This document shows, one piece after another, positions 7,588 to 45,215 of a stretch of 64,000 nt of DNA. The notes below the pieces were generated by a model. It ran no database searches. It was not told the DNA's origin and saw only the letters and a program-made list of their open reading frames with translations. Within the stretch, counting starts at the first letter, position 1. Every line of letters begins with the position of its first letter. The stretch comes from Psammoneis japonica. Lineage: Eukaryota. The stretch is from assembly GCA_008632985.1 (NCBI GenBank), contig QPGO01000279.1, positions 1-64,000 of the forward strand. The letters run 5' to 3'. The position numbers were made by a program, and so were the translations under genes.

Positions 7588-7642
7588 CTCTTCCCTTCCG
7601 CGATTCATGCGAATGCTTTGAATCGCAATCCACTTGATCATG

Positions 7643-12453: not shown

Positions 12454-12539
12454 TGCATTTAAGGTAAAGAATGCACAATAAAGAAAAGAGAAGGAAAGAA
12501 CAAGACACAGTGTGATCACAGTGAACGGTCTTGACAAGT

Positions 12540-13835: not shown

Positions 13836-13837
13836 TT

Positions 13838-16968: not shown

Positions 16969-17275
16969 CTACGAATTGCAAGACAATTGCGCGATTCACG
17001 TGCCCGAAGGGTGATTGTTGAAATTCGAGCTTCGCGCACGTAGAGCCTGTAGAAAATGTACCAGCCAGCCCGAAGCTCCGATTTGCGTAGATCACGTAGG
17101 AGAGTACCACAAGGTCATTTGATGAAATGACTGGGACGATTTAGACGACCAAAATGAAAATTTTGATACCACATCATACGTAGAAATGACATCTGCGCGA
17201 AGGGAGAATGTTGCTTCGGGCAACGATATTCCACCTTCGGGCACGTGAATCGCGCAATTGTCTTGCAATTTGTAG
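16969..17275. mobile_element. MITE with about 42-bp TIRs and TA TSD (Tc1/mariner-like)
   Basis: 16966-17010 versus reverse complement of 17234-17278: 44 of 45 match. Flanked by TA on both sides. Confidence 0.85.
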
Positions 17276-17526
17276 TACTGTACCGTACGGTAGAGGCCTA
17301 TGGCCTATGATATATGATATGATAAATGTCGACGGCGTTCGCATCGTTGCCACTCTGTTTTCGGTCCCTTTCCACCATGTCGGAATCGCATCTATTTCAC
17401 AACCGACGGAGAATATCGGAACCGCAGGTTTTGTCGATCATTGTTAGCTTTAACTACCTTCGTGACTTCGTACAGTAAAGGGGCCAAGACCACACGAGTG
17501 GTGCTTTAGAAGAAATTGCTCGACAC

Positions 17527-20397: not shown

Positions 20398-20461
20398 GGC
20401 AGCTAGGTTGATTAGAATTGTGTATGGCCACTTCCTCAAATTTGAAATTTTACATTGGCAT

Positions 20462-21560
20462 CTAATTAAGTTTCTTATCAGCAAGACTCAAAAAATGATT
20501 GTTGTCCACCCATTTAGAACAGCAGAATTCGAAGCCAAGACGGTACGCTGTGCTGGACATAAAACCGCTTGGACTGCCACGACTGTATCTCCAGTGCAAA
20601 TCGTACGTGGGGGAACAAACGGCACATCGATGGAAAGCTGAGAATCTGCTCTTTCCAGCGGTGCCTTTGCTGTGGTCTCTGGTAGATACAATTCTACGTA
20701 AGCGCCCGTAGGATTGTCCCGTGTGAGAGTGTGGTGGCATGCCAACCTCCTCGGGCACTTTGGGACGCTGGGCAGTTGCGCCAATGACAGAGAAACCAAA
20801 AGGCATCGGAGGGGATGCTCTGTTGTGTCTACGTTTGGGAGAGCGGCACTGCCATGGTGTCGTATCTCTTTGCATTTTCTTTCCCGATGTCAGCATGTTT
20901 TCTACGTTAAGTTCTACGCGATTCAGCAATTTCCAAGTCAGCCATTCCAGTGCAAATTTCAGGTGCAATTCTTCTTGTTTGGCTAGAATTTTGAGGTGAT
21001 GACCGTTTCAGGTTTGTCTTTTTGTTCTTTCACCAACGCACTTCCTTTGAGTTTTCTTCCCAACACACTGCAATCCATGATGGATGTTCTGTGGTGTTCC
21101 AAAGTGGGTCATCACAAGGCTTTCAAGCGGTTGGCATCTCCAAGTCTCGCTGTTGCTCCTCTTGCTCTTCGATTTTGCAGCTTCAGCACACAATTTCTGC
21201 ACAATTCTACGCATGACGGAAATTTCATCTGACATTTCCGATCATCATTTCCCTTTCTTTGTTGGGGTCCGTGTTGGACTTTCTTGGGCACTTTCATCCC
21301 AGGAATTTCTCTCACTTCTCTTCAAGCATGTCATCTTCGGAGACAGACACGTGTTTGGTTTTCTGCAGTGTTTGTTTTGGTTTCTCCCAAGTGGTGTGGT
21401 TGGGCTTGTCCATTCTTCGAGGCACAGCAACTGTGGTTGCCGTGTAACAAGCATCCGGTTGGTTGCCATTCTGACTTCAAACAAACAGCCTCTTTCTGAT
21501 GATGCATTGACGGCATTGCCTTCGGACGATGTGTTGATGGCATTGTCTTTCTGACAACGT
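20462..21560 (-). pseudogene. Possible degenerate ORF of unknown type, convergent with the host gene
   Basis: Successive same-frame ORFs (21245-21484, 21008-21235, 20462-20968) separated by TGA stops. No recognisable motif. Confidence 0.3.
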
Positions 21561-22945: not shown

Positions 22946-23448
22946 TGTGTCATCCTTAATCATCTCTGTTGATGCTGCCCAATTAACGTGATTGGTGCTT
23001 GTTCTCTTTGCATGTCTACATCCTTGAATCCTTTTCATGTGACATCAGATGATGCCAATTGCCATGCTAAGACTGACAGAGATTTTCTGTTTTTTCTTTA
23101 TTCTGGCACTGTCATGCCGTTCTTTTTCACCACGGTGATGATCGTTTGATCATCAAAATTTTCCAAAACATTTGTTGACAAATCAACTCTGAATGTTCAC
23201 ATCGAGATCCGTTGGGATCTTTCTATCTTCTGTGCATTGTCCAAGCCCGCAAGGTTTTTATCTTGCTTTGTCTTGTGACATTCCCAAAGATCAACAAAAC
23301 AGCTTCCCCCGCCAAAAAATTCTCTAATTTTCTGATGTCCTCTCTCATGCATGCATTTGCACATCAAGTCAAGATTCAAGTCAAGTTTCAAGTTGTTTCA
23401 AGCTCACCTTCTGACTCTGGCCAGTCCCAACACCCACCTGGTTGCAAC

Positions 23449-26400
23449 ATGGTTCTAACCAGGCAGCAACAAATTGACGGCCTCGAGCACATTCTAGGCA
23501 CTGTTCTGAATCAAGCCACAGACAGTCCATTGCGCTCTGCCCTCAACATTGATGATTCTGGCTTGCATCAGGATCTCTTCACTTTTACTCCGACACAACT
23601 GGATGCCTTGGTTTGTGATGATGGCACCAATCAGATGCCCTTGCCACGTGGTTACAAAGCACAGATAGCTGTGCTGATTAGCATGTACATGGTAAAAGCG
23701 CACGGTGGCGCGGATGTTAGCAATGACTCTCAATTGATCACACAAGAGGAGTTCACCAACTATGGTCTTAGTCCTGAGCACGCAGCATCCCTTTCCATGG
23801 GTGCAGCTCCCTCTGCTCCCACTCCTGGCTCATTGCCACCCAAACCATGTGATCCCATGCGTGACTTTAAACGAGGAATCAAATGTGACCCTCTCACCTT
23901 CGAGACTCTCAAGTCTGACAAACAGAGGCACATGTGGCCCACCTCCATTGTCACACAGGCCTGCTCCCAGGACATCAACCGCATTCTTGATCTGACGTAC
24001 AAGCCCTCTACAGCTGAGGACAAGGCACTGTTCGACAAACAACAGAAACACATGTTCGCCACATTCGGACGCATCTTGCAGAACGACAAATGCAAGGCAC
24101 TTGTTCGTGAACATGTCGGCTCCTCTGATGCTCAAGCAGTGTGTTGTGACCTGTCCAAGTGCACACTTGCATCTGCTCGTGCATTCCTGGAGTCCTCAAC
24201 CCTTCTCACCTACCTCACCACTGCCCGCCTTGGTGATGGCACCTGGAAAGGATCCACTCATGCCTTCACACTTCACTGGCAAGACCAGCTTTGCAAGCAT
24301 GAAGCTCTTATTCTGGGTACGGACCACTTCTCTGCTGGCCAGAAATGCGTCATGCTTGAGAACACCGTTCATCCCATTGAAGAATTTCGTTCGGCAAAGA
24401 ATCAGGCCGATCAGTTTTGTGCACAGAATGACAGAGGCCTTTCTTACAAACAGTGCTGTGGGCTCCTGCTTTCTGCAGCAGCACAGTGCGACAGCACGTT
24501 CACCCCCAAGATGGCTCCTTGCACTCCGCACTATGCCATCTGTGAACATGACTTGGCCCCTGACGACCCTGATGACAGTGTGTTCTTTGACATCCACAGT
24601 GATGTTGATGTCATCCAAGCTCATGCTGCACAAACTCGTGGCAACTCCCTCACCAGGGAACAATGGTGTTGCATCCTGCCGGACCATCAGCGCATTTGGG
24701 ACACCTTGCCACAGTCCACCAAGGCCATCATCCTTGGCTCGCGCACCGCCCACACCGGCAACTGCCATGACTCAATGGCAGTCAATCTGCATGACCTCCA
24801 CATTGGCAGCAATGGCGATGTCAACTTGTCCGCCAACACTCACGATCTTGCGTTGGCCTCTGCACCATCCAACGCTGCAGCTGATGCAGCCGTTGCTGAC
24901 CCCATTCTGGCTCATCTCACCAGGCGCACACCTCTGCCACCCGGTGATCTGCAACGTCTCCCAGCACCTGAATGGCCTCCTTCCGCCTGTTCTGGAGAGA
25001 AACCCCCTGGATCTGTGTCTTCCGTCCGCTCTGACGAGAAGCCCAATGACACTGACATTGAGATCAACAGTCATAAATGCCATCGTGTCAATGACCACAA
25101 TGTCCTCTGCTCTGCCTTGACCCACAAATCGACCCACAAAGGCACCCTAGTGGATTGTGATGCAAACGGTGGCATTGCCGGTGATGATGTTTGTGTCATT
25201 GCTTGCACTGGTCACCAGGTTGACGTCCAAGGTGTCGACGATCACCAACTGGTCAACATTCCCATCATTGTCACTGCCGGTGGTGTCATCCACACACAAC
25301 GTGGCCCCGTCATCAACATTCTTCACCAGTCCGCCTGCACTGGAAAAGGCAAGACCATGCACTCTTGCGGTCAACTTGAGTGGCACAAGCATGACATCAA
25401 GGATCGGTCCATCAAGGTCCCCAATGGTCTGCAGTGCATCACCACCATTGATGGATGTGTCATCCCCATTGACATCAAAGGCGGCCTTCCGTACATCGCC
25501 ACACGTCGGTGCACTGATCCCGAGTGGGACACCTTGCCACATGTCGTCCTCACTGGTGATGACACTTGGGACCCATCTGTCCTTGACCACCAGTTCACCG
25601 ACAATGAGACGTGGCATGATGCCACATCTAACCTCCAGGCCAACCCAACCACCAACCCATTTGATGAGTTCAGCAACCGCCATGTCATCAACAACACCAT
25701 GCTTACGGACTCTGTCCTTGATGACCACCTGCTCCCGACATCCAATTTCTTCTACGAATGCCATGAGTGCGAGATCAATCCAAAAAAATCCCGACTTTGA
25801 ATCTCTGCACCCTCTTTTTGGCTTTCTCCTGAAGGACACTGTTTGCCGCACTTCTGATTGCACGACGCAATGCGCCCGCATGCCAGCCAGCATGCACTTG
25901 ACAAAGGCGCAAAAGTCACCCAACCTGGCTCTCAATGTCCACCGATGCAACAAACCCATTGCCACTGACACGGTGTGCTCTGATGCCCCCGCCATTGACT
26001 CCGGCTGCACCAGCGCCCAGCTCTTCATTGGCACTAAATCCATTGTCACCGACATGTGCAGAACCAAGACCGCCACGGAATTCATCAACATGCTTGAAAA
26101 CAACATTCATAATCGTGGTGCCCCATCCAAGCTCATCAGCCACTGTGCTCAAGTTGAGATTAGCAACAAGGTTCTCGGCATCCTCCATGCCCTCTTCATC
26201 TCTAGTTGGCAAAGTGAGCCTCACCAACATCATCAGAATTTTGCTGAACGTTGCTGCCAAACTGTGTGGACCATGGCCAACACCACAATGGATCGCTTTG
26301 GGTCTCCGGCTTACACCTGGCCACTCACCCTGTTGTGCGTGTGCTTCGTGCTCAACCACACGCCATCTGCCAAGCTCCACTGGTGCACCCCACCAAAGTG

Positions 26401-29276
26401 CTGTCTGGCTCTGCTCCCAACATCAGCCTGCTCTTCTGTCTTCAATGGTGGGAACCTGTGCACTGTCACCTGGATGATTCCGACTGGCTGTCCGAATCCC
26501 GCGAATTACGTGGTCGCTTCGTTGGCATTGCTGAACACGTGGGCCACCAAATGACGTTCAAGATTCTTTCTGATGACACTCAGAAGATTCTCTGCCCTTC
26601 CAATGTGCGTTCTGCCCATGACCCATCTGCTCCAAACCTGCATCTTGATCCTCCTGATAAGAAATCAGCTTAACCCGTCATTAAATCCTGCCATGACTCC
26701 AAGGATTTGCCGGATTCACCAGATGGGGAGGCAATCAGGATGCCCAAAATGCCGGTCTTTGACCCCGAGGACATCATTGGACGCACCTTCCTCATGAAGC
26801 CACAAGAGGATGGACAATGCCACAGAGCCCGCATTGTCAAAGCTGTTGAGGACCATGACTGGAAAATTGGAACAATCCTGAACTGGTCAAGTTCATTTGC
26901 TCCGTCAACAATGATGAGTGCGAGGAAGTCCTGGCCTGCAACAACATCATGCACCACTTGGAGCAAAACGATGAGGACACTAACCTCTGGAAGTTCCAAT
27001 GCATTGCATCGCAGGAAGGACCATTGCGACCCCATGATCCCTCTTGGAAAGGCTCAAGCTGCAACATCATGCTTGAATGGGAGAATGTGGAGATCACGTC
27101 AGAATCCCTTGCCATGATTGCCAAGGATGATCCCATCACCTGTGCCATCCATGCACGTGAGCACGGCCTCCTTGCAACCAAAGGATGGAGACGTTTCCGC
27201 AAGACAGCCCTGCGCCAGAAAAGAAGCTATTCCGCATGGCCAATCAAGCCAAGTTGTGCTCCTTTTGCACCGCACCACAATGCAAGTGCGGCTGTGAAGT
27301 GCCCTGGGACTACAAGCATGCCTTGGCCCTTGATGAGCACAATGGCAACCGCAAGTGGGGAGACACAACAGACCTCGAGATGACTCAGCTTGATGAGTAC
27401 GAAGTCTTCCATGACTGCTGACATTACAAGGATTCCAGTTCCCCGCCAGGACACAAGAAAGATCTGGGTGCATCTTGTCTGCAATGTCAAACATGACGGA
27501 CGGCACAAAGGAAGGCTTGTTGCTGATGGACACCTCACAGACGTGCCCGTCGACAGTGTCTGTTCCGGAGCAGTGTCTCTTTGCAGCCTGCCAATGATGA
27601 TCTTTCTAGCCAAACTCAACGAACTAGAGACTTGGGCTGCCAACATTGGGAATGCCCATCTCGAAGCTGTGACCAAGGAGAAACTGTGCATTGCAGCAGG
27701 CCCCGAATTCAGCAAGCTAGAAGGACACATCCTTGTCATCCACAAGGCCTTGCATGGACTCCGCAGCTCTGGCCTCAGATGGCATGAACATTTTGCCCAT
27801 TGCTTGCATGCCAAGGGTTTCTTCCCGTGTAGAGCTGAACCTGACATCTGGCTGCGTAGGAACGGCGACCACTGCGAATGCATGGCGGTGCATGTGGACA
27901 ACCCAGCCTTTGCCATGAAGGATCCCCAGGCTTTTGCAGACACTCTCATGGAGAAATGCAAGTTCAAGCTCAAGGGCACTGCACCATTGGAGTTCCATCT
28001 TGGTTGCGACTTCACCCGTGATCCAGATGGCCCCTTGTGCCTTGCTCCCCGCAAGTGCATTGAGTGCATGGTTGACAACTGCGTGCATCTCTTTGGGGAG
28101 AAGCCCCACTCTGACATGTGCTTTCACCCCTTTTGACAAGGGAGACCACCCTGAGCTTGATGCCTCCGAATCACTCAAACCGGAGGGCATCCACCATTTC
28201 CAATCCTTGATTGGTTCCCTGCAATGGGCCGCATTTCTTGGTCGCATTGACACTGCTGCGGCCATCATGTCCTTGTCTGGCTTCCATGCAGCACCCTGCC
28301 AAGGCCACCTAGACTGTGCCAATTGCATCTGCGGATTCCTCTCCAAGATGCATCGTAGTGCCCTCTGAGTGCACACCGAGGAGCCCGACTCTTTGGACCT
28401 TCCCAAGCCCATGCATGACTGGGCCCAGTCTGTGCATGGGGAGGTAGAAGAGCTGCTCCCGCAAAATGCACCTGAGCCACTTGGCAAGTTCATCACCACA
28501 ACACACTGTGCCGATGCAAACTTGTTCCATTGCATGCTCACTGGATGCTCTGTCACCGGCATCCTCCATTTCCTCAACAAGTTTCTGGCTGATTGGTTCT
28601 CTAAGAAACAAGCAACAGTTGAGACTGCCATGCATGGATCCAAGTTTGTCACTGCAAGGACATGCGTTCAGCAGATCATTGACCTGCGCATCACTTTACA
28701 TTGCCTTGGCATCCCCATTCGCAAAAACATGTTACATGTTCAGGGACAGCAAGTTGGTTGTGGACATTGCTGCCATCCCACACTCAAAGTTACACAAACA
28801 ACACACCGCCCTCTCGTTCCATCATGTGCGTGAGGCAATTCCTTCTGGTTTCCTGGAGTTTCATTTCATTGAAGGGTCCTGCAACCCGGCTGACATCCTC
28901 AGCCAGCATTGGGGTCACTCCCAAGTCTGGAACCTCCTTCATCCTCTAATGTTTTGGAACTTTGATCCCAAGGCTTTCAACCAATCTGACTTCGAATCCA
29001 TCACTGGTGACCCCTCAAGCAAACTGGGGAGTGACAGGATTTGAACAAGATTTTAGTTTGTGGCACACAATTATGTGTGCTCTTAGTTCCGCCTGCATTG
29101 CATGATGTAGTTTGCTTTCAAGCCACATGGCTCACAAGAACAATGACAGCAGTGCCGACATCATGACACCAGTCTTTTGGCTCCTGCAATGGTCTCTGCA
29201 CGGAGACTCATCTGCCATTTAGACAGCAGCAAGGAGTTGTTGTTTTCTTCCACCCAGTCATCTTTAATTTCTGTCA
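23449..29276 (+). mobile_element. CoDi-type Ty1/Copia element (gag-PR-INT-RT-RH plus 3' LTR); 5' LTR not recognised
   Basis: RDFKRGIK (gag), VDCDANGG (PR), WQSEPHQHHQNFAE (INT), KHDGRHK/KALHGLRSSG/HVDN (RT), WFSKKQATVET..NPADILS (RH). PPT AAACTGGGGAG. Confidence 0.93.
29032..29276 (+). repeat. 3' LTR (TGACAG..CTGTCA)
   Basis: Follows the PPT. Homologous to 39828-40074 in inverted orientation. Confidence 0.85.
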
Positions 29277-29279
29277 CTC

Positions 29280-30350
29280 CTCGTGAGAATCTGGGACATT
29301 TCATGGCTCCCATTGGCACTCAAAGGATGCAACTGATGAAACTGCAGAACAAGAGTGACTCAGTTGCATTGTTTTTGAGGTCATGTCCACTTGATAGGAC
29401 TGAAACCTGGTGACATCACCACGCATGTTACCTTTTCTCCATGATGCATGTTTTGGCTAAATTCCAATTTTCTTTCAAAAGAACTTCAGCAGGTCCAACA
29501 AAAGGCAATGAGGACAATGTTTGCAAAATGCAGATGCAATGGGAATGCCAAACGATTGATGCTTTACAGCCCGCAATCTCCAGGAGGAGGAGGCTTTTGA
29601 TCACTGGACATTGAACAAGGGATGTCTCAGATGCTGCAACTCTTAAAGCATTCAAAAGGAGTTGAATGGTTAAATCTTGGTAAAGACCAGCCACACAAAC
29701 TACTTCACATCGCAGTTGCATGGATCCAACTGAATTTAGGAACGGGAGATGGCTTTCCATGGGACGTGGAGACAACGTTGCCACACATGGAATCCTGCTG
29801 GTTTGCATCTGTCTGGGAATTTCTTCACAAGATTAATGGACGAGTGCAGCATGCCTCAGTGCTGGACAACATGGCAAGACCGTGCACAGCCTCTGGTGTG
29901 TGGCAGTGCAGCATTGCCAACACACACCTGGGAAGCACAACCACAGGAGGGCATGGCTTTGTGTCTTGGGCAATCTAGAAGGATGCTAAGAGAGCACCTG
30001 TGTGAAGCACTCCAACCTGTTGTCTGGCCCACAACAGTGGCGTGGTTCCACACGATGACATCACTCGTGCACAGCACATGATGGCATGATTCACACGATC
30101 CATGATGCGAACGCACGATCGATTGGTGCAATCCAAAATGCAAATAAATGGCCAATTTGGCAAGATTCCCCATTTGCACGATTCCATTTCTCTGCACATA
30201 AACTGGCTCATGATTTTCACATCGATGCAGTTGTAACACATCTGCATTTTTGTTGCCTGTTGCATGCATGGGGCACAACAATGTTACTCCCGCACAGTGT
30301 GCGAGGTTACGAAATCTACAAAAACGAATGCTGCGACATGTTGGTGGGAC
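29280..30350 (+). mobile_element. LINE ORF2 fragments (post-RT region)
   Basis: LLHIAVAWIQLNLGTG..LPHMESCWFASVWEFL. Similar to 50500-51080. Confidence 0.6.
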
Positions 30351-32440
30351 TAACAAACTCGAAAACCACCACGAAGAAGCATCTCAAGCCGCCGATTCCA
30401 TTTGCGCGGCCGGAGAAGAAGGAACCACAGCAGGGTGAGCACCAGACGTTCAAGCTGCATGACGACCCCACTGATGCTGACAGTCCAACACATGAGATGG
30501 GTCTGCCATGCTTTTCTGCGGGAACATGCAAGGAACTTCTCATTTTTATCTGCAACACCGAGCGTGTGCATCAAGGACAAAACATCACTGCGGGGCCAGA
30601 GAAGTGTGCACTCATGCACAGGCTTCTCGAGGGCAATGCCCTGACAACCTTTAATGAGGCCGCTGAAGAGCAAGCTTCTCAAACCAATGCTGCGCATGCC
30701 GCGTGCATGGCGAAGCTAAAGGAAAGCATCTTCCCTCATGGGGTGGCGCCATTGCAGAAACGTCATCTGCAACGCTTCATGCACAAGCCCACTGAGGTTT
30801 CTGCTTGTGACTGTGTCGCGAGGGCTGTTGAAATTAATGACTGTGTCTCTCAGTTTCCACCCATGATGCAGGGAGGAGAAACACCAGAGTCATTACCCAA
30901 TGATGAACTCTGTGACTTGTTCGAGTGTGGTGTGCTGAATGCGTGGCAGAAGATCATGACTCTACAGAATTTTGACCCGTTGGCTCATGCTGTGTCCGAG
31001 TTTGTACAATTCTGTGAGCGGATCAAGCAGGTCGAGTCTGCCGAAGGTAACCAGGACCAACACACTAAGGTTCCATGCAAGCGGGGCCGTAGAACGGACA
31101 ATCCTGAGTCATTGATCATGATTCAGAAGAACACCCAGAAGTCGTGCATGCTCCATGGGACTGACTGTGGACATCACACTGACGATTACCGTGCACTCAA
31201 GCACCACGTGAAATGTGTCAAGACCAGCCATGCCAATGGTGGAGGCGGCAAGCCCAATCAAAAACCCAAGCCCTGTAGAAGACATTCATGCTGTCATTGG
31301 AACGAAGGTAGAAGAATTCTTTGCCAATGCTCAGAAAAAGCGCAAGGCATGTGAGGAAGAGCTTGATCACTGCAGTGACCTCAACTTAAGCGATTCCAAG
31401 AACTCGGATGCCTGAGAAGGGGGCCGACACGACACTGGCAGTTTTAATGCATTAGATGAATGCACAAATGAACAACTGACATGCCATTGTACACGTGTTG
31501 TAGGCCAATCACGTAAACGAGTTAAAAAGACTCACCTCACACCAATCTTGTTTGTAGCTGTGAATGCCAAGCATGGCAAAGGCAAAACTCAGACCATTGA
31601 GGCACTGCTGGACAGTGGTCCCAGCAGCACTCTACTAGACAAGCAATGCTGCAAGCATTTGCCAAGCCGTTCAATGGCTGAGACAAACTGGACTACGGCA
31701 GCAGGCTCGTTCAGTGTGGTCAGTGATTGCACCGTTAAATTTAAGTTGCCAGAACTCTCAGAAACTGCGGAACTTATGCACACGGTCCATGCACACAACG
31801 GAAAGTTGGGCAAGTGCGACATGATTGTTGGATGAGACATTCTGGAGACACAAGGCATGAGAGTGGCCAACAGTCAATGGAGAAGCACCAATGTGGCACG
31901 TAGATGCTACGGTGGAAACCTCCTTCTTTCTTCAAGATCTAGAAGCCTTAACTTCGGAAACCGACCAGATTCACGCATTTTGGATGCCAAGTGTGCGCCG
32001 GCATGCCTCAAGGATATAATTCGAGGGGCAATGAGATTTTCTGTTGTACAACAGGACAACCTTTTGGCATTGTTGAAATGCCATGAATCCCAATTTGATG
32101 GGACATTGGGAGAATGGAAAGGAGAACCCCACCATGTCCAACTTAAGGAGGATGTAGAACCATGCCACGCTCATCCGCACAAAGCACCTTGTGCGTGCGA
32201 AGCTACCCTGCGTAAAGAAGTAGAGCACCTTGCACATGCAGGTGTTCTCAAACGCGTTGACCGATCCCAATGGGCAGCTCCATCATTTATCATGCCGCAG
32301 AAAGACCCAACCATGCGGTTTGTCAATGATTTGAGAGAGCTGAACAAACGGATCAAGCGATCACCTTATCCGATCCCTCATGTCCAAGATGTGCTGCTAA
32401 AGCTCGAAGGCTTTATGTGGGCTGCATCACTGCATCTTAA

Positions 32441-32977
32441 GGTAATCGCAGAACCGCGTGAGAGATGACAAGACGATTCGACTTTATGAATTTTTTTTGC
32501 ACTGGAAACTTCGTGCGTGCTACATGCATCATCGCTAAAAATCGGCGACATGACGATGGTGCGTTGTCGTAACGACAGCGATGACAACGACGTGTCCTCG
32601 ACTATTTGGGCATTATGGACATTTAGTTCATTAAGTTTAAGAACGCATTCAGTCATGAAAGTCCCTGGGAGAAGCCTTCGTTCAAAAGCAAAATGTCGTG
32701 CAAATGCCGAGCTCAATTTTTCGACCATCGTTTGATGCATTCGATTATGGAACGATTAAGAGTTCGTCCGGGGGACTTTCTTGATGTACACGTGTTCTTA
32801 AGAGCATTGTTGACACAGTCATTAAGTGCCAACAGCGAAGTCTTTCTCTAGAGGAGCGTCGCAAACGTGTCATCGTCATCGTCGGCATTGAACGGCAACT
32901 TGTTGCGCAAATCGCGAAAACAGCACGGACCGTCATCTTCCGACAATGAGCTGCTGCGCGCGACTCCTGCGCATGCC
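32441..32977. mobile_element. 537-bp non-autonomous element with TTAA TSD and GG..CC ends (Kolobok-like)
   Basis: TTAA at 32437-32440 and 32978-32981. Splits RT motif SL(D)LN|MG. Imperfect TIR GGTAATCGCAG / GGCATGCGCAG. Confidence 0.8.
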
Positions 32978-34700
32978 TTAACATGGGATGTTGTCATGTT
33001 CGTTTGGATGCTGACAGCAAAAAGCTGTGTATGCTCATCTTCCTGTGGGGCAAGCATGAGATGCAAGCATTGCCCATGGGGTTGTGCAACTCACCAGACA
33101 TCTTCCAAGAACGCATGTCAGGCTTATTTGAAGATCTGTTGTTCGTTCGAATGCACTTAGATGACCTTCTTGTTGTGACGAAAGGCACCTGTAAAGATCA
33201 CCTCAAGAAACTTGAAGAAGCACTGTTGACGGTCCAGAAAGCAGGACTAAAAGTTAACGCAACTAAGTCGCACTTCTGTCAAACCCAATTAGAACACTTG
33301 GGTTATCTCGTCAACCATGACGGCACACGGCCAATGCCTAAAAAAGTCAACGCCATTAAACGTATCGCGAAGCCTACAAATGAGCACAACCTGCGCTCAT
33401 TTATGGGTGCAGTAAACTGCTGCCGTGGATTAGACGTTCTGAAGCCTTGGCTCCACTAGCATGACTCGTTAGCAAGACTGTTAAGGGAGTGGACGTCCGT
33501 TGAAGACGAGGCGTTTGAAACCGTTAAACGAATGGCATCGGATGATGTCTTGTCAACACATCGTGATTTTAACAAACCCTTTGAGACACATGCCAATGCC
33601 TCTAAACATCAAATGGGAGCAGTTGTGTCCCAGGATGACAAACCAATCGCATTCTCCTTTGCCTTCCAAATCCAATCCGGATGTGCAGGACACTCCATTG
33701 AGTTGTCCCTTGCATGAAGCTTTCAATGCAGACATGCTAGACGCCGCACCTCTGCCTGTTAGCTTCAAGCGCATCCAAAAAGAACAGCAACATGACAAGC
33801 GTTTGCTGTCGCGAGCTGAGGACTCGTCTGACCACTCCATTTGCACGCATCGTGGGGGAGGGTCATCACGACAGTTAACATGTCAGCACTCTACTAGACA
33901 AGCAATGCTGCAAGCGTTTGCCAAGCCGTTCAATGGCTGAGACAAACTGGACTACGGCAGCAGGCTCGTTCAGTGTGGTCAGCGATTGCACCGTTAAATT
34001 TAAGTTGCCAGAACTGTCAGAAACTGCGGAACTTATGCACAGGGTCCACGCACACAATGGAAAGTTGGGCAAGTGCAACATGATTGTTGGATGAGACATT
34101 CTGGAGACACAAGGCATGAGAGTGGCCAACAGTCAATGGAGAAGCACCAATGTGGCACGTAGATGCTACGGCGGAAACCTCCTTCTTTCTTCAAGATCTA
34201 GAAGCCTTGGCTTCGGAAACCGACCGGATTTCACGCATTTTGGATGCCAAGTGCATGCCGGCATGCCTCAAGGATATAATTCGAGGGGCAATGAGATTTT
34301 CTGTTGTACAACAGGACAACCTTTTGGCATTGTTGAAATGCCATGAATCCCAATTTGATGGGACATTGGGAGAATGGAAAGGAGAACCCCACCATGTCCA
34401 ACTTAAGGAGGATGTAGAACCATGCCACGCTCATCCGCACAAAGCACCTTGTGCGTGCGAAGCTACCCTGCGTAAAGAAGTAGAGCACCTTGCACATGCA
34501 GGTGTTCTCAAACGCGTTGACCGATCCCAATGGGCAGCTCCATCATTTATCATGCCGCAGAAAGACCCAACCATGCGGTTTGTCAATGATTTGAGAGAGC
34601 TGAACAAACGGATCAAGCGATCACCTTATCCGATCCCTCATGTCCAAGATGTGCTGCTAAAGCTCGAAGGCTTTATGTGGGCTGCATCACTGCATCTTAA

Positions 34701-35237
34701 GGTAATCGCAGAACCGCGTGAGAGATGACAAGACGATTCGACTTTATGAATTTTTTTTGCACTGGAAACTTCGTGCGTGCTACATGCATCATCGCTAAAA
34801 ATCGGCGACATGACGATGGTGTGTTGTCGTAACGACAGCGATGACAACGACGTGTCCTCGACTATTTGGGCATCATGGACATTTAGTTCATTAAGTTTAA
34901 GAACGCATTCAGTCATGAAAGTCCCCGGGAGAAGCCTTCATTCAAAAGCAAAATGTCGTGCAAATGCCGAGCTCAATTTTTCGACCATCGTTTGATGCAT
35001 TCGATTATGGAACGATTAAGAGTTCGTCCGGGGGACTTTCTTGACGTACACATGTTCTTAAGAGCATTGTTGACACAGTCATTAAGTGCCAACAGCGAAG
35101 TCTTTCTCTAGAGGAGCGTCGCAAACGTGTCATCGTCATCGTCGGCATTGAATGGCAACTTGTTGCGCAAATCGCGAAAATAGCACGGACCGTCATCTTC
35201 CGACAACGAGCTGCTGCGCGCGACTCCTGCGCATGCC
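34701..35237. mobile_element. Second copy of the TTAA element (product of the tandem duplication)
   Basis: Same site and sequence as 32441-32977. Confidence 0.8.
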
Positions 35238-36274
35238 TTAACATGGGACATTGTCATATTCGTTTGGATGCTGACAGCAAAAAGCTGTGTATGCTCATCT
35301 TCCTGTGGGGCAAGCATGAGATGCAAGCATTGCCCATGGGGTTGTGCAACTCACCAGACATCTTCCAAGAACGCATGTCAGGCTTATTTGAAGATCTGTT
35401 GTTCATTCGAACGCGCTTAGATGACCTTCTTGTTGTGACGAAAGGCACCTGTAAAGATCACCTCAAGAAACTTGAAGAAGCACTGTTGACGGTCCAGAAA
35501 GCAGGACTAAAAGTTAACGCAACTAAGTCGCACTTCTGTCAAACCCAATTAGAACACTTGGGTTGTCTCGTCAACCATGACGGCACACGGCCAATGCCTA
35601 AAAAAGTCAACGCCATTAAACGCATCGCAAAGCCCACAAATGAGCACGACCTGCGCTCATTTGTGGGTGCAGTAAACTGCTGCTGTGGATTGGACATTCT
35701 GAAGTCTTGGCTCCACTAGCATGACTCGTTAGCGAGACTGTTAAGGGAGTGGACGTCCATTGAAGACGAGGCGTTTGAAACCGTTAAACGAATGGCATCG
35801 GATGATGTCTTGTCAACACATCGTGATTTTAACAAACCCTTTGAGACACATGCCAATGCCTCTAAACATCAAATGGGAGCAGTTGTGTCCCAGGATGATA
35901 AACCAATCGCATTCTCCTTTGCCTTCCAAATCCAATCCGGATGTGCAGGACACTCCATTGAGTTGTCCCTCACATGAAGCTTTCAATGCAGACATGCTAG
36001 ACGCCGCACCTCTGCCTGTTAGCTTCAAGCGCATCCAAAAAGAGCAGCAACATGACAAGCGTTTGCTGTCGTGAGCTGAGGACTCATCTGACCACTCCAT
36101 TTGCACGCATCGTGGGGGAGGGTCATCACGACAGTTAACATGTCATAGGACAAAATTGCAGCACCAAAGTCATTGCAGGTTCTGTTGACTGAATGGCACC
36201 ACAAGACACTGTGTCATCCAGGTGAGACACGTTCAGAAACATCTGTTGCCCAGCACTTCTGCTGGCCTGGTGTG

Positions 36275-38900
36275 AATTAGTTTCTTCTCTCGGTGAAGGG
36301 CCTCCCACTTGTTGTCCTTGTGTGATTCAACAAGGCATGCCGTGACAGCACTACACTCATCAGCAAAACCAGGGTCATCTGCCTTCAGTTGAGCAATCGA
36401 TGGGTCAATCGCATTGGTCGTCTGTGGTGGAATCAACGGGTGAGTAAAACATTTGCCATTGATGAGTTGACCATGCATCAGAACATCCTGACTCTTCCAT
36501 TGACAATGTTTTGCAGTGAATTGGCAAGTGCCAAGGTCATGGAACTTTTGGATGCACTCGGTGACGCAATCTTTTTGTTGACAAGGGTGGAGTGGAGAGC
36601 AGGGTGGTGGTGAGTCCGCATGCGGCCAAAACCCTCCTCAGTTTCTGCTGGGACATGCAGACAACCAATGCCATGGGGAACAGCCTTGGAACCCACAGCA
36701 GGAGCCATGTCCAGAGGACAAGGGAAATCATCAGAAAATTCCCGACAGGAGTGGATGAGGTCACGTTCTCCCATGCACGAAATGGAAGCACCAGCATCAA
36801 GTTGTGTGCAGCATTCGGATTTCTCAAAGTGCACTGCATTGACCTTGAAAGTGCCAAAATCGCAGTCGGAGGGGACTGGATGAGAGTCATGAAGAGACTC
36901 ACGCATGGTTGTGCACACTGCATTGATCCATGCAGTGTCATTGGTTCTGGAGTCACTGCACTCAATCGGAAAAGGGTCGTGATCATCTGCATTTACCCTC
37001 CCCTGATCCATGTCAGGAGATGCATTGTCCACATCGGGAGGAGCAGGAGTGTCCAAACAGTCATCATCAGGGACATGAGAGACATCAATTTCTTGATGAT
37101 TCAAAACGTCTTGAGAAGGAGAAAGAGGTTTGTGGTGGATGATGATGAGACTGGCAGCCCCTCTTTCACAATCGTCCCACCATCATCCACAAGCACTTGG
37201 CAAGGAGAAAAGGGGTGGCATCATAGATCCGAGATTAGCTGCGACGGCCCGATTGCAAATCTGGAGCAGGATTGGTGGAACCCTTGTCATTGGTTCTACC
37301 TGGCAACAGACCTTGTTTGTCCAGGAATGCGTTGTTGTGCATTGTTGCTTCCCTGTGGAGGAACTGACAAAAACCGGATGTGGAAGCCCTTGAGGCAAGG
37401 ATTGTTGTGGAGGACAGGACAGTCATCAAAAAGATGTTCATCACCACAGACAACACAATCCTTCGATGTGACCACACTTGGTGTTGCCTTGATCTTGAAA
37501 ACCGTAGCTGAGCAGGTGTGGTGCAGGAAACGGTCATCATCATTTGGGGGGACATCCAAGTCTGCAAGATCCGCACAAAGACTGTCACAGGTCTTTTCGT
37601 GTGGGATGGTGTTATCAGGAGGTGCATTGGAAGTATCCGCAGTCCGTGGATCAACCACATCAGCGGGTGGTGCAGAATTGTCCGCATCAAGCACATTGAC
37701 GGGTGCACTCAATCGGTGCTGCTGCTCATCATCCCAACGACAAGGGTTGGAATGCGGGCGATGGGATGTGCAAGGTTTGGGAATCGGAGACTGTGTGGGA
37801 CTGTCAGCTTGACTCAGAAAAGTTGTGAGCATCTCGACGATTTGCTCATCCGTGTGTTGTTGTTTCTTGGATTTTGATTTCCATTCCTCCCTGGTGACAC
37901 GGGACAGGAAAGCCACATGCTTCGTGTTGTTGATGAACACAGTCATCTCACATTCATCATCAAGAGAAGAGTCGGTGTCAAAGACACATGCACGCATCTG
38001 CATGAAGTCCTTTACGTGCAGATGATGCGCAGTCAAATCAAGGTCACCTTGCTTGGGACAGCTGTCAACCAGCATTGGGGCTTCATCATGGAAGGCAGGG
38101 TGGATCTCGAGTGAGATCTTCTTGAGGGCCTTGTGGCCATTGCCGCAACAACTAGCCACAATTTTGTGACACTTGCTTCCCTCAGGAAACATGTCAGATC
38201 GTGACAAGATCTTGTGGACAACATTCTGTGCTTGTTTGCAATGGACATGCATGCGTTGCGGTGGGTCGTCATCAGGATCGTTGCCAATGGTAAAGCCACG
38301 GTCACCACTGTGGTCGAGCCTGAAACACCATAAAGGGTGCATGTAGCAGTGCCCGAGTCATGGCAATGTCGCATGAATTGAGTGCACCATGCACGGATGC
38401 CTTGGGGAGAGTCTTTGAGGCATAAGTTTGGTTCACGGAGCAGCATTTTGTGGTCAGGTGTTGATGACATCACAAAAAGTGTTCTGTCAGCGAGCACCAG
38501 TCATTCAGCACAGTCAATGTGGCACATGTTTCCATGGTTGTGTTGTACAAGCGTGGTGGATGGCACATTCTTTCCAGCTTCCTTGCGGTCATGTCGTTCG
38601 TGAACATCGGACAGAAGGGTGGCTGGGTTGAAGAGGCATTTTGATGCAATGGACGTTGCAGTGCCTGCTGCAGGTGTACCTGATGGCTTGCCAGCACTGG
38701 AGTTGAGAGTTCCAATGGCTTTTACTGAGTCTTCAAGTTTGACCATCGTCGGAGCTGCCACAGCAGACGAGGTGGTCGATGTTGCAGCAGGGTTGAATGT
38801 TAACAGTGTCAAAGCAAATTCAGTCCAATCCAAAAAGTTTCCTTTCATGTCAGGAGCAAGGTGGATATGAGCTGTCGTGATGGTTGTGACGACTCTCACG
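36275..38900 (-). pseudogene. Copia-type gag-protease fragment of another family
   Basis: Zinc knuckle CVVCGDEHLFDDC; protease QLDAGASISC..HGIG..HHPAL..TLV. LTR-like non-coding sequence upstream (about 38940-39600). Confidence 0.65.
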
Positions 38901-39827
38901 TGTCCACGCGATGTAGACTTCGCGATCGCTCTATGAAGGGTTAAGGGTGTAAGACGTGTTTCACCCAGTTCAGTTGGAGTGAAGACCTTGAGAGCAGCTT
39001 TATTGATGACATCTCGAACTGCTTGTTCATTTGTAGGGTCTTGGGTAAAGGGTACGATGCTCTTCTAAATGACATGCTGCTCACGAAAAACGTCGAGAAA
39101 ATCAGACTTGGGGGACAGTGTATCCTGTGTCGTCAAAAAAATCGTCTAGAGCAGTTCAAGGATCGTGTCAGAATAAAGGTTGTTCAGGTTAGTGCTGACA
39201 TGTTTGTGCTGAGGATGATCTTGAAGGTAGAACTGCATTTCACCGAGAGTGGGCATGACACTCGGTTTCATCAGCATTTCGCTCATGGTGCAAGGCGGGA
39301 AAAAATCCTGGTCGTGCACGCGCAGAATCGTAGGATGTTTCTATGACAGAAAAATTTTGTCAAAGTTGAGCTCAAAAAGTTGTCGGACCAAAAATGGCGG
39401 TGCCGGCTTGTTGCAGCTCACAAAATGATCGAATGAAGAAAGAATCAACAGCACAGAGAAATTGTGACCAGCGCAAGGCCACAACCTGTCAGAGCACCAA
39501 AAGGATGGAGGTAAAAATGGGTCAAAGACTCCTTAAAGACCAGGACAGTGATGCAACACGTGCACCAGTAATCAAGAATGAGAGGATCTTGGATGGAGAT
39601 CCATGAGGCTATCTAAAAAGGGTCTGTCCAGAAATCGTACAGTGCAGTCTGTCCGCATGCCATCATCTGGCAGACTGACAGAGATTCATGATGAGCTTGG
39701 CTGCCTGTGCACTTGGTGCTCAAGCCCTCCACAGCACACAAGGAACCTCTTGTCAACCCCACTGGTCACACATTTGGAAGCCCAACTGCCACAAGTCAAC
39801 CAAATGGCCGATCCAGCCCAGTCACTG

Positions 39828-42800
39828 TGACAGAAATTGAAGATGACTGGGTGGAAGAAAAACAATAACTCCTTACTGCTGTCTAAATGGCAGATGAGTC
39901 TCCGTGCAGAGACCATCACAGGAGCCGAGAGACTGGTGTTGTTGACATCGCAACTGCTGTCATTATTCTTCTGAGCCGAGTGGCTCGAAAGCAAACTACA
40001 TCGCGCGGTGCACGCGGAACTAAGAGCACACATAATTATGTGTGATAAACTAAAATCTTGTTCAAATCCTGTCACTCCCCAGTTTGCTTGAGGGGTCAGC
40101 AGCAATAGATTCGAGGTCAGATTGGTTGAAAGCCTTGGGATCGAAGTTCTAAGTCATTAGAGGACGAAGGAGGTTCCAGACTTGGGAGTAACCCCAATGC
40201 TTGCTGAGGATGTCAGCTGGGTTGCAGGAGCCTTCAATGAAATGAAACTCTAGGAAACCGGAGGCAATCGCCTCACGTACACGATGGAACAAGAGGACAG
40301 TGAGTCGCTTGTGTAACTTGGAGTGTGGGATGGCAGCACTATCCACAACCAACTTGTTGTCCCCGAACATGCAACATGTTTCACGAATGGGGATGCCAAG
40401 GCAATGTAGGGTGATGCGCAGATCAATGATCTGCTCAACGCACGTCCTTGCGGCAACAAACTTGGATCCACACATGGCAGTCTCGACTGTTGCTTGCTTC
40501 ATAGAGAACCAATCAGCCAGAAACTTATTGAGGAAATGGAGGATGCCGGTGACAGAGCATCCAGTGAGCATGCAATGGAACAAGTTCGCATCAACGCAGT
40601 GTGTCGTGGTGACAAACTTGCCCAGTGGCTCAGGCGCATCTTGCGGGAGCAGCTCTTCTGCCTCCCCATACACAGACTGGGCCCAGTCATGTGCGGGCTT
40701 GGGAAGGTCTGAACAGTCGGGCTCCTCGGTGTGCACTCAGAGGGCACCATGACACATCTTGGAGAGGAATCCGCAGATGCATTTGGCATGGTCTAGGTGG
40801 CCTTGGCAGGGCGCTGCACGGAAGCTAGACAGGGACATGACAGCTGCAGCAATGTCAATGCAACCAAGAGATGTAGCCCATTGCAGGGAACCAATCAAGG
40901 ATTGGAATTGGTGGATGCCCTCCAGTTTGAGTAATTCGGAGGTGTCGAGCTCAGGGTGGTCTCCCTTGTCAAGGGGTGAAAGCACATCAGTGCAGTGCTT
41001 CTCCCAAAAGAGGCGCATGCAGTTGTCAACCATGTGCTCAACGCACTTGCAAGGAGCAAGACACAGGGTGCCATCTGGATCACAGGTGAAGTTGCAACCA
41101 AGATGGAACTCCAATGGTCCAGTGCCCTTGAACTTAACTTGCATTTCTCCATGAGAGTGTCTGCGAAAGCTTGTGGGTCCTTTCATGGCAAAGACCAGGT
41201 CGTCCACATACACTGCCACGTGTTTGCAGTGGTCACCATTCCTACGCAGCCAGATGTTGGGTTTGGCTTTGCACAGGAAGAAACCCTTGGCATGCAAGCA
41301 ATTGGCAAAGCATTCATGCCATCTGAGGCCGGAGCTGCGGAGTCCGTACAAGGCCTTGTGGATGACAAGGATGTGTCCTTCTAGTTCACCAAATTCGGGG
41401 CCTGCCATGATGTGCAGTTTCTCCTTGGTCGCAGCTTTGAGACAGGCATTCCCAATGTCAGTGGCCCAAGTCTCTAGCTTGTTGAGTTCAGCTGGGAAGA
41501 TCAACATTCGCAGGCCACAAAGAGACACTGCTCCGGAATGGACACTGTCGATGGGTACGTCTGTGAGGTGTCCATCGGCAACAAGCCTTGCTTTGTGCCG
41601 TCCATCATGTTTGATGTCGTAGACAAGATGCACTGGGATCTTCTTGTGTCCTGATGGAGCGCTGGAATCCTTGCAATGTCTGCAGTCATGGAAAACCTCG
41701 TGCTCACCAAGCCGAGTCATCTCGAGGTCTGTTGCATCTCCCCACTTGCGGTTGCCATTGCACTCATTGAGGGCCAAGGCATGCTTGTAGTTCCAAGGTA
41801 CTTCATGCCCATGCTTGCATTGTGGCACAGCACGAAAGGAGCGTAACTTGGCTTGATTGGCCATGCAGAATAGCTTCTTCTGATGCAGGGCTATCTTGGG
41901 GAAACGTCTCCATCCTTTGGTTTCAAAGAGGCGGTGCTCACGTGCACAGATGGCACAGGTGACGGGATTGTCCTTGGCAATGATGGCAAGGGGTTCGGAC
42001 ATGATCTCCCCATTCTCCCATTCAAGTGTGACATTGTAGCTTGAGCCATTCCAAGAGGGATCATGGGGTCGCAATGGTCCTTCATGCGATGCAATGTGTC
42101 AGAACTTCCAGAGGGTGGTGTCCTTGTTTTCTTGCTCGATGTGGTGCATGATGTCGTTCCAGGCCAGGACTTCCTCATATTCATCATTGTTGATGGAGCA
42201 AATGAACTTGACCAGTTCAGGATTGTCTCCAATTTTCCAGTCATGGTCCTCAATGGCTTTGACAATGCGGGCTCTGTGGTGTTGTCCGTCCTCTTGTGGC
42301 TTCATGAGGAAGGTGAGTCCGATGATGTCCTCAGGGTCAAAGACCGGCATTTTGGGCATCTTGATCACCTCCCCATCTGGTGAATCTGGCCAACACTTGG
42401 AGTCGTGGCGGGATTTAATGACGGGTTCAGCTGATTTCTCATCAGGAGGGTCAAGACGCAGGTTTGGGGTGGACAGGTCATGGGCGGAACGCAAGTTGGA
42501 GCGACAGAGAATCTTCTGAGTGTCATCAGATGGGACCTTGAATGTCATCTGATGGCCCACATGTTTGGCAATGCCAATGAAGCGACTGCATAACTCATGG
42601 GATTCGGACGGCCAGTCGGAATCATCGAGGTGGCAGCACATGGGTTCCCACCATTGAAAAGGAAGGAGCGGGCTGATGTCTGGGGTAGAGCCAGACAGCA
42701 CCTCTGTGGGAGCACACCAGTGAAGCTTGGCAGATGCCGTGTGGTTGAGCACAAAGTGCACGCACATCAGGGTGAGCAGCCATGTGCAAGCCAGAGACCT

Positions 42801-45215
42801 GAAGCAATCCATGATGGTGTTGGCCATGGTCTTCACAGTTTGGCAGCAATGTTCAGCAAAATTCTGATGCTGTTGGTGAGGCTTGCTTTGCCAACTAGAG
42901 ATGAAGAGGGCACGAAGGATGCCAAGAACCTTGTTGCTGATTTCAACTTGAGCAAGGTTGCTGATGAGCTTGGATGGGGCACCATGATTACAAATGTTGT
43001 CTTCGAGCATGTTGACAAATTCCTTGTTGGTTTTGGTTCCGCACACGTCCATGACAAGGGATTCTGTGCTGCAGCAAACAGTGTCCTTCAGAAGAAAGCC
43101 AAAATGAGGGCAGAGTGACTCAAAATCTGGGTCCTTGGGATTGATCTCGCACTCGTGGCATTTGTAGAAAAAATCAGAGGTTGGGAGCAGGCGGTCATCA
43201 AGGATGGAGTCTGTGAGCATGGCATTGTTGACGACATGGCGGTGGCAATGGTTGCCAAACTCATCAAAGAGGTTGGCAGTGGGTCGTCTTGGAGGTCAGA
43301 CATGGCATCATGCCACGTCTCATCATTGGTGAACTGGTGGTTGAGGACAGATGGGTCCCAAGTGTCATCACCAGTGAGGACAACATGTGGCAAGGTGTCC
43401 CATTCAGCATCAGTGTGCAGACATGTGGTGATGTACGGAAGGCCGCCTTTGATGTCAATGGGGATGATGTGTCCATCAATGGTGGTGATGCACTGCAGAC
43501 CATTGGGGACCTTGATGGACCAATCGTTGACGTCATGCTTGCACCACTCAAGTTGACTGCAAGAGTGTGTGGTCTTGCCCTTCCCAGTGCAGGTGCACTG
43601 GTGAAGAATGGCGATGATGGGTCTGCGTTGCATGTGGATGACACCGCTGGCTGTGACAATGGGAATGTTGACAAGTTGATGGTCGTCGATGCCTTGTACG
43701 TCAACCTGGTAACCAGTGCGGGCAATGACATGAACGTCATCACCGGCAACACCACTGTTTGTGCCATGATCCACAAGAGCACCCTTTCAAGTCAAGGTGT
43801 GGTTTGAGGCAGAGTGGATGACATTGTGATTGTTGACACGATGGTGTTTGTGACCCTTGATCTCAATGACAGTGTCGGCATTGCAGAAAGACACAGATTG
43901 GTTGGGTTTCTCGTCAAAGTGGACAGAATTTGCAGATCCGGGGCATCTTGCCAGAGGGGGTGGAAGGAGGCTGTTCAGGTGCCAGCAGACATTGCAAGTC
44001 ACCAGGTGGCAAGGGTTTGCACCTGGTGAGATGAGCCAGGATGGGGTTAGCACCAGCTGAGTTGGCTGCAGCATCGGGTGGTTCAGGGGCCAACATAAGA
44101 TCATGGGTGTTGGCTGACAAGTTGACTTTGCCAATGCTGTCAAGATGGAGGTCGTGCAGGTTGACTGTCATCAAGTCATGACAGTTGCCAGCATGGGCAG
44201 TGCATGAGCCAAGGATGATGACCTTGGTGGACTGAGGCAAGGTGTCCCAGATGTGCTGGTGGTCAGGCGGAATGCAACGCCATTGTTCCCTGGTGAGGGA
44301 GGTGCCACGAGTCTGTGCAGCACAGGCTTAAATGATGGCAATGTTGCTGTTGATGTCAAAGAACATGTCATCATCAGGGTCATTGGGAGCCAGGTCATGT
44401 TTGTAGATGGCGCTGCATGGAGTGCGTGGAGCCGTCTTGGGGGTGAACACACTGTTGTGCTGTGCCGCTGCAGAAAGCAGGAGCCCACAGTGCTGTTTGC
44501 ACGAAAGGCCTCTACCATTCTGTGTGCAAAATTGATTGGCTTGATTCTTTACTGAACGAAGTTCTTCAACAGGATGAATGGCATTCTCAAGCATGACATG
44601 TTTCTGGCCAGCAAAGAAGTGGTCTGCGCTTGGAACAAGAGCCTTGTGCTTGCAAAGCTGGACCTGCCAGTGAAGTGTGAAGGCATGGGTGGATCCTTTC
44701 CAGGTGCCATCGCCAAGGCCAGCAGTGGTGAGACATGTGAGAAGGGTCGAGGACTCCAGGGATGTGTGAGCAGATGCAAGGGCGCACTTGGACAGGTCAC
44801 GATACACTGCTTGAGCATCAGAGGAGCCAACATGTTCATGAACAAGTGCCTTGCCTTTGTCATTCTGCAAGATGCATTCGAATGCAGCGAACATGTGCTT
44901 TTGTTGTTCATCAAACAGGGCCTTGTCCTCAGCTGTAGAGGGCTTGTACATTGGATCGAGAATGCAGTCGACATCCTGGGAGCGGGCCTGTGCGACAACA
45001 GAGGTGTGTCACGTGTGCCACTGTTTGTCTGACTTGAGAATCATGAAGGTGAGTGGACCACATTTGATTCCTCATTTAAAGTCATGCACGGGGTCACGTG
45101 GTTTTGGTGGCAATGAGCCAGGAGTGGGAGCAGATGGCACTGTGCCCATGGAGAGGGATGCCACATGCTCAGGACTAAGATGACAGTCAGTGAACTCCTC
45201 AAGTGTGAACAAGTG
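39828..45215 (-). mobile_element. Second CoDi-type Copia copy, 5'-truncated in gag; 3' LTR 39828-40074
   Basis: Colinear homology with 23750-29276. Retains YVDD, KALYG, VYDIKHDG. Deletion in the INT N-terminus. Confidence 0.93.

Follow-up and report, generated by a model that had tools for sequence, protein, structure and literature searches.

A tandem duplicate in a disabled Ty3/gypsy-like retrotransposon whose copies differ mainly at CpG and TpA: evidence for change on chromosomal DNA after insertion

Introduction

When the copies of a retrotransposon accumulate transitions at particular dinucleotides, do these changes arise before integration, while the element exists as RNA or complementary DNA (cDNA), or afterward, on the chromosome itself? 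The question is raised by the first 64,000 nucleotides of contig QPGO01000279.1 (hereafter the window, meaning the whole stretch analysed), in which a gypsy-like element fragment on the + strand (29651..36319) carries a head-to-tail duplicate of 2.26 kb. The two units of this duplicate differ almost exclusively by transitions, most of them at CpG or TpA, and the TpA-type changes are evenly divided between the strands and run away from TpA wherever their direction can be assigned. The reading that we favor, with a probability of roughly 0.7, is that an already dead piece of the element was copied in place on the chromosome and that the copies then diverged through two processes acting on DNA, one at CpG and the other at TpA.

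Several processes that mutate mobile elements in a sequence-specific manner offer points of comparison. Repeat-induced point mutation (RIP) of fungi converts C to T, mostly at CpA and on both strands of repeated or foreign DNA, in the course of which TpA is created and transposon genes are wrecked. ADAR hyperediting and APOBEC editing of cDNA take place before integration, on RNA or cDNA, and their signature is confined to one strand.

The closest precedent comes from mutation-accumulation lines of Bigelowiella natans. According to a preprint, 231 of 302 nuclear mutations in these lines were located within two integrated viral regions, one the insert of a giant virus and the other that of a virophage; 230 of the 231 were A>G or T>C, all stated to lie on TpA, and the mutations were confined to some of the lines (bioRxiv 10.64898/2026.01.13.699255, Mettrop et al.). 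The same text describes TpA depletion with an excess of CpA and TpG elsewhere too, as well as an enrichment of reverse-transcriptase Pfams among TpA-depleted coding sequences, and it proposes an ADAT2-like adenine deaminase; as far as that text extends, the word 'retrotransposon' does not occur in it, and transposons are named only as possible targets (bioRxiv 10.64898/2026.01.13.699255). A literature search for TpA>TpG/CpA hypermutation returned only this preprint, the other results being work on RIP, ADAR or APOBEC. The TpA process itself is already in print, and what the window adds is the same signature in long terminal repeat (LTR) retrotransposons, beside CpG decay.

Anatomy of the duplicate

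Unit 1 (31625..33885, + strand) comprises protease sequence from just past the DSG motif, reverse transcriptase (RT; RVT_1, E = 2e-11) and part of the RNase H region, all from a dead Ty3/gypsy-like element, as identified by self-BLAST and by alignment to RT relatives. Unit 2 (33884..36145, + strand; RVT_1, E = 7.4e-10) is 97.9% identical to it and carries one additional T at 34229; the self-BLAST alignment of the two has 2262 columns and contains 47 mismatches and 1 gap (97.878% identity). A repeat finder placed the units at a spacing of 2259/2260, while Tandem Repeats Finder, whose longest searchable period is 500, gave no match for a duplicate with units of 2.26 kb. Direct comparison of the boundary sequences revealed a 2-bp microhomology (CA) at the duplication junction (33884..33885), common to the end of one unit and the start of the next. 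Both outer boundaries are unbroken in relatives: on the left, 'LLDSGPS|STLLD' aligns to the relative P0125, and on the right, residues 610-708 of the relative P0123 align over 35976-36265 and reach the integrase zinc-finger region. The N-terminal zinc-finger remnant of the integrase (36146..36319, + strand) follows directly after unit 2, as it does in intact relatives. A deletion junction at the right boundary of unit 2 was considered and ruled out, a relaxed tblastn search having placed the deletion inside each unit and found the boundary continuous in relatives.

The element belongs with the Ty3/gypsy type by the order of its pol domains, since the DSG protease motif, RT (RVT_1), the beginning of the RNase H domain and the integrase zinc finger all align to relatives in that order; the element has lost the core of RNase H and has no integrase core. 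Its closest RT relatives share 50-61% identity at the protein level and 66-70% at the DNA level, and protein searches returned no named close relative for the element proteins of the window.

Both units carry the same older lesions. Seven in-frame stop codons are common to them. An insertion of 558 bp (32441..32998, + strand, in unit 1; 34701..35258, + strand, in register in unit 2) splits the RT motif SLDL|NMGYYH in the protein alignment and is skipped in the DNA of relatives; its presence at the same place in both units makes it older than the duplication. At the site of the RNase H core deletion (33655..33715 in unit 1 and 35915-35975 in unit 2, + strand), identified by tblastn of the relatives P0123 and P0140, about 118 residues of P0123 (492-609) are matched by only about 61 nt, again in both units. 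Because the insertion, the deletion and the seven stops are common to both units, the stretch was already dead when it was copied, which suggests that the copying took place in situ at the level of DNA, or at least that the element was no longer self-mobile. The claim of the first-pass annotation that the units arose in place thus looks sound on the assembly sequence, given the microhomology at the junction, the continuous outer boundaries and the common pre-existing lesions.

The 558-bp insertion has features of its own. With imperfect inverted repeats of 19 nt at its termini (79% complementary) and a CTTAA at both flanks, it resembles a small DNA transposon that has duplicated a TTAA-type target. 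The insertion has a CpG ratio of 1.54, and read depth in the sequencing run suggests that it is itself repeated. One contig of the family links 32440 to 32999 with 17 other letters between.

Spectrum of differences between the units

All differences between the units were listed by alignment and classified by dinucleotide context, with sites counted on both strands. Transitions make up 45 of the 47 substitutions: 26 are of the CpG/TpG type, 10 are of the TpA/CpA type, 6 are accounted for by three dinucleotides at which one unit has TG and the other CA, and 3 belong to neither type (31951, 33445 and 33784). The other two substitutions are transversions (31757 and 31783). A CpG or TpA is present in one unit at 36 of the 47 substituted positions, as had been noted in the first-pass annotation, which placed most differences at these dinucleotides. 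The five TpA pairs that it quoted are all correct and span 128 bp: 33305 A / 35565 G (TAT to TGT, LGY to LGC), 33363 T / 35623 C, 33375 T / 35635 C, 33403 A / 35663 G and 33432 A / 35692 G.

That annotation had also made its case depend on an enrichment of TpA changes per site, and such an enrichment exists. Without any assumption about direction, C/T differences occur at 10 of 524 sites before A and at 3 of 1111 sites before C or T (Fisher p = 0.0011). Taken as T>C, the differences affect 10 of the 130 TpA sites and 3 of the 656 TpC and TpT sites (p = 2e-6); taken in reverse, as C>T, they affect 10 of the 394 CpA sites and 3 of the 455 CpC and CpT sites (p = 0.046), so that the size of the enrichment depends on the direction of change that is assumed.

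The CpG component, which amounts to 26 to 28 of the 47 differences when counted as CpG changing to TpG or CpA, resembles the deamination of 5-methylcytosine usual in methylated repeats, and cytosine in this host would presumably be methylated as well. Transversions, which account for 2 of the 47 differences between the units, make up 209 of 957 listed places of change (22%) between this copy and contigs of the same family in the read data. Their rarity between the units indicates that the differences do not stem chiefly from paralogues, whether by import or by mixing.

Direction of change

Direction was assigned from RT relatives at 40-60% identity aligned as protein, and only at the level of codons, the relatives being too distant for polarity to be read nucleotide by nucleotide. 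All five TpA-type sites that could be polarized in this way run from TA to TG or CA, unit 1 having undergone two of the changes and unit 2 three. At column 32989/32990, relatives encode tyrosine (Tyr; TAT), unit 1 encodes cysteine (Cys; TGT) and unit 2 encodes histidine (His; CAT). The Tyr of the relatives implies that the same TpA was struck independently in each unit, and this double site, polarized to TA, stands in addition to the 10 single TpA-type transitions. Relatives also have Tyr at column 33305, where unit 1 retains TAT and unit 2 has TGT. At columns 32998 and 33403, relatives mostly have isoleucine and the preceding base is T, so that A is the likelier ancestral first base of the codon; the units read GTT and ATT at the former and ATG and GTG at the latter (unit 1 and unit 2, respectively). 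The CpG-type sites polarize as expected at 31657, 31818, 33145, 33152, 33424 and 31994-31996 (from CGCG), with 33155 remaining ambiguous.

Conserved amino acid columns tell the same story on a larger scale. Two further elements of the window have between them 42 conserved Tyr columns, 28 of which now hold Cys or His, while none of 33 conserved His or Cys columns now holds Tyr; in the same two elements conserved phenylalanine is kept at 36 of 42 columns and conserved asparagine at 18 of 20. Among 18 conserved Tyr columns in the units, 11 show a Cys or His replacement common to both (6 Cys and 5 His), one is split between Cys and His, one between Tyr and Cys, and one between His and arginine; none has Tyr in both units, and the single surviving Tyr is in unit 1. 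The consensus for these columns excluded one protein, P0136, which carries the same replacement of Tyr by Cys or His.

The read data, which derive from one sequencing run and take the form of short contigs, point the same way. Among the 40 best-supported of 968 places at which these contigs differ from the window, 10 sites read CpA or TpG in the window and TpA in contigs of the family, and 1 site shows the reverse; TpA is present in all contigs at 3 of the 10 and in over half of the depth at 4 more. None of the 47 differences between the units is among these 40 places.

These observations bear on the possibility that the direction is the opposite one, with a RIP-like or methylation-driven change of C to T at CpA/TpG creating TpA and being triggered, as in fungi, by the duplication. 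A tandem duplicate is the classic substrate for RIP, the window resembles RIP targets in having context-specific transitions in repeats on both strands, and the unpolarized counts allow such a reading at the p = 0.046 given above. Every one of the five polarized sites, however, runs the other way, as do the conserved columns, and TpA is depleted rather than enriched: the units have an observed/expected ratio of 0.40-0.42 and the window as a whole one of 0.23, the lowest value, 0.15, being that of the oldest repeats. Unlike in RIP, TpA is destroyed here, and a low-copy stretch is as strongly depleted as the repeats (see below). Change toward TpA is close to refuted.

Change before or after integration

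On the coding strand, the TpA-type differences divide into 5 A/G and 5 T/C, which agrees with the first-pass remark that both A>G and T>C occur, and the CpG-type differences into 13 and 13. Editing of sense RNA alone would give one kind only, and its A>G signature restricted to the sense strand is absent here. The point matters for the alternative that the duplicate was already present in a progenitor element and that its copies were altered during retrotransposition, by A-to-I editing of RNA by an ADAR-like enzyme or by deamination of cDNA before integration. This alternative shares with the window a deaminase-type signature in retroelement copies, and ADAR-type enzymes favor a U before the edited A according to the preprint (bioRxiv 10.64898/2026.01.13.699255). 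It also draws support from another element of the window (8528-11134, - strand), in which the Tyr columns are replaced in a one-sided manner, by Cys in 14 cases and His in 2, the outcome expected of sense-strand editing. In the duplicate itself, by contrast, the differences are strand-symmetric and later than a duplication at the DNA level, and the replacements that predate the duplication are likewise balanced (6 Cys and 5 His). Moreover, an element without an RNase H core, with an insertion in its RT and with seven stops common to both units would be mobile only by help in trans, and the duplication junction is not repeated among the joints listed from the read data. We regard editing before integration as quite unlikely for the duplicate, in keeping with the first-pass argument against RNA editing followed by reverse transcription, which the strand symmetry and the anatomy of a dead element both support.

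The element at 8528-11134 merits a separate comment. Its gypsy pol frame of 869 aa is still open, though 16 of its 22 conserved Tyr columns have been replaced, and its Cys:His ratio of 14:2 at these columns differs from the ratios seen in the copia copy (6:6) and in the units (6:5). For that element, the lopsided split could reflect a bias between strands or editing while it was RNA.

Clustering and gene conversion

The first-pass annotation had also suggested that the TpA changes come in local, clustered bursts, and here the evidence is less accommodating. Five of the 10 TpA-type differences do lie within 130 bp (33305..33432, + strand; 35565-35692 in unit 2), TpA being retained in unit 1 and replaced by TpG or CpA in unit 2. 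The probability of such a cluster is 0.016 when sites are sampled among TpA bases and 0.045 when the identical tract described below is left out, and it rises to 0.13 once the size of the cluster is allowed to vary freely; the bin that holds the cluster is also the one richest in TpA bases (24 of 136). The suggestion of bursts does not survive this correction.

A contrary signal is the lack of any unit difference over 31997..32561 (+ strand; 34257-34821 in unit 2), the largest gap between differences at 566 bp. This tract contains 89 CpG or TpA bases and 0 differences (p = 0.0015), and it has probably been homogenized by gene conversion between the units.

Conversion might also have acted from outside, in that the differences, chiefly those of the patch at 33305-33445, could have been copied from other members of the family that differ at the same hot sites. 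Ten differences fall within the 141 bp of this patch, eight of the nine assignable ones are derived in unit 2, and the identical tract indicates that conversion does act on the units. Derived states nevertheless show no runs along the unit as a whole (15 in unit 1 and 22 in unit 2, forming 22 runs in 37 sites; p = 0.90), and transversions, which make up 22% of the changes against family contigs, number 0 of 10 in the patch and remain as scarce in the units as reported above. Ectopic conversion as the source of the differences is accordingly very improbable.

Reliability of the assembly

Might the tandem arrangement be an artefact, in which haplotypes or paralogous loci were stitched together by the assembler or letters were altered by short-read polishing within a high-copy family? 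The family is indeed abundant: the summed contig depth over the element fragment is 715-11381, running into the thousands, against about 31 at flanking contigs that match perfectly, and it falls past 36319. Only 0.54 of the sampled words of 30800-37000 were found in the run, and at several sites every contig has a letter other than that of the window. Set against these points are a window without any N, the clean microhomology at the junction, the continuity of the outer boundaries in relatives, and a share of transversions far below that seen against family contigs. Among the contig pieces listed from the run none crosses the duplication junction, an outcome that is neutral as to whether the duplicate is real. 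Several joints of the read contigs described as 'goes back' were examined as candidate rearrangements of the duplicate locus and rejected as such; taken modulo the 2260-bp period, they are colinear matches or deletions in other copies.

An artefact is on balance unlikely, and one form of it would leave the main inference intact. Alleles also diverge on chromosomal DNA, so that post-insertion change would still stand if the units were the two haplotypes of a single insertion. The argument fails only if each unit stems from an insertion of its own, or if the duplicated element later moved once more.

A model of duplication and divergence

In the model that we prefer, a 2.26-kb internal piece of a disabled Ty3/gypsy-like retrotransposon would have been copied head to tail at a 2-bp microhomology, most of the TpA loss in the element having probably taken place before this event. 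Two processes may then have separated the copies in place. The first would turn CpG into TpG or CpA, presumably by ordinary deamination of methylated cytosine. The second would turn TpA into TpG or CpA, that is, A into G at an A preceded by T on whichever strand, and its likeliest mechanism may be the conversion of adenine in DNA to hypoxanthine by a polynucleotide adenine deaminase, as hypothesized in the preprint. As estimated from counts, about 4% per TpA base per copy would have changed since the duplication, compared with about 0.1% for bases outside CpG and TpA. The CpG ratio of the element is 0.87-0.90, while TpA had dropped to about half the level of relatives before the duplication; since then the CpG and TpA classes have changed at similar per-site rates. 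That the loss of TpA ran ahead of that of CpG before the duplication is a hint of episodic action.

Several observations weigh against this model and temper the confidence placed in it. Only 10 to 12 TpA events separate the units, and five of these are polarized, the rest being synonymous or unalignable to relatives. The enrichment is weak when the change is taken as CpA to TpA (p = 0.046), and in older repeat pairs the rate at CpA sites (0.03-0.06) is not above that at CpC and CpT, so that the direction of change rests on outgroups and composition rather than on counts between the units. The identical tract means that the units have not evolved independently throughout. At many repeat sites all contigs of the run differ from the letter in the window, which leaves room for assembly or polishing errors in a high-copy family. 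Finally, the window contains no normally composed host DNA, and a targeted process and a genome-wide bias are therefore indistinguishable within it. Change in place after insertion is a reasonable inference, one that rests on few events and an unconfirmed assembly.

Dinucleotide composition of the window

By the cut-offs of the preprint (bioRxiv 10.64898/2026.01.13.699255), 56 of 64 one-kb windows are TpA-depleted (ratio 0.43 or less), and 44 of 64 are also enriched in CpA/TpG, as judged by the mean of the TG and CA ratios. The least depleted kilobases, at 13000-14000 and 16000-21000 (ratios 0.48-0.66), may represent younger or different DNA; three open reading frames in this least-depleted part (17479-18447, 18891-19829 and 19762-20394) have no Pfam match. 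The stretch at 36320-39826, by contrast, is low-copy (depth 36-185) and yet has a TpA ratio of 0.19, which shows that present copy number does not predict depletion.

The density of surviving TpA relative to intact relatives varies with its neighbors, being 0.06 for ATAT, 0.09 for ATAC/GTAT, 0.38 for CTAG and 0.39 for TTAA; these are rough values with other elements as the baseline, by which the A in TAT seems to be the most exposed.

In 54 metagenome loci that encode relatives of this RT the median TpA ratio is 0.81, and it is 0.82 in the 50 without TpA depletion. In the other four (L018, L019, L040 and L048) the ratio lies at 0.04-0.22 for TpA and at 1.41-1.64 for CpA+TpG, so that the same signature is present in environmental DNA.

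Relation to the B. natans process and wider significance

The window resembles B. natans in its A>G and T>C changes at TpA giving TpG or CpA, in its depletion of TpA with an excess of CpA and TpG, and in what appears to be action on chromosomal DNA, seen here in the strand symmetry of changes that follow the duplication of dead DNA in the assembly. The two cases differ in that the evidence from B. natans is direct and concerns viral inserts, whereas the evidence here is comparative and concerns LTR retrotransposons; here, moreover, the depletion extends over nearly the whole 64-kb window and CpG decay occurs alongside.

The signature thus spans LTR retrotransposons of two superfamilies, and the tandem duplicate provides an internal before-and-after comparison that points to change on the chromosome. 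Should the host belong to a lineage other than that of B. natans, the process would not be the curiosity of one species. We raise, tentatively, the further possibility that in such a case DNA editing of TpA to TpG or CpA is a widespread genome defense of protists, akin to RIP but opposite in direction, that removes four fifths or more of retrotransposon TpA and still acts on dead copies. The four depleted contigs among the 54 from the environment are a hint at its reach. There are practical consequences as well: the loss of TpA strips away TAA and TAG stops, leaving dead elements with long open frames that gene finders overcall, and it turns Tyr into Cys or His, lowering the apparent identity of these elements to their relatives.

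Other elements of the window

Pfam matches over the window comprise RVT_2 (copia-type) and RVT_1, RNase H and the integrase zinc finger (gypsy-type), each in several places, and an Rfam search of the window found no RNA gene. With transposon relics throughout, the window is, by its sequence, a graveyard of nested eukaryotic retrotransposons. The nearest Atlas clusters lie, loosely, in diatoms for a copia protein and in oomycetes, fungi and animals for a gypsy protein.

The gypsy fragment that holds the duplicate is enclosed by an inverted pair of copia-like elements (RVT_2), the left partner at 23734..29277 on the + strand and the right partner at 39827..45212 on the - strand, with 81-87% identity between them. 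Comparison of 23734-29277 with 45212-39827 gave 142 and 146 transitions at which the neighboring base also differs, mostly as TG against CA, the pattern expected from independent hits on one CpG or TpA in both copies.

The element at 8528-11134 is flanked by a direct repeat of 161 bp (7419-7579 and 12538-12698; 95.7% identity) that may be its LTR pair, although a target-site duplication was looked for at these repeats and not found. The 7 differences within the repeat comprise 2 of the CpG type, 3 of the TpA type and 2 in a CA/TG double site. Long stop-free frames (873, 374, 467 and 319 aa) overlap in several frames and on both strands at 23179-26554 and elsewhere, as is to be expected where the loss of TpA has removed TAA and TAG.

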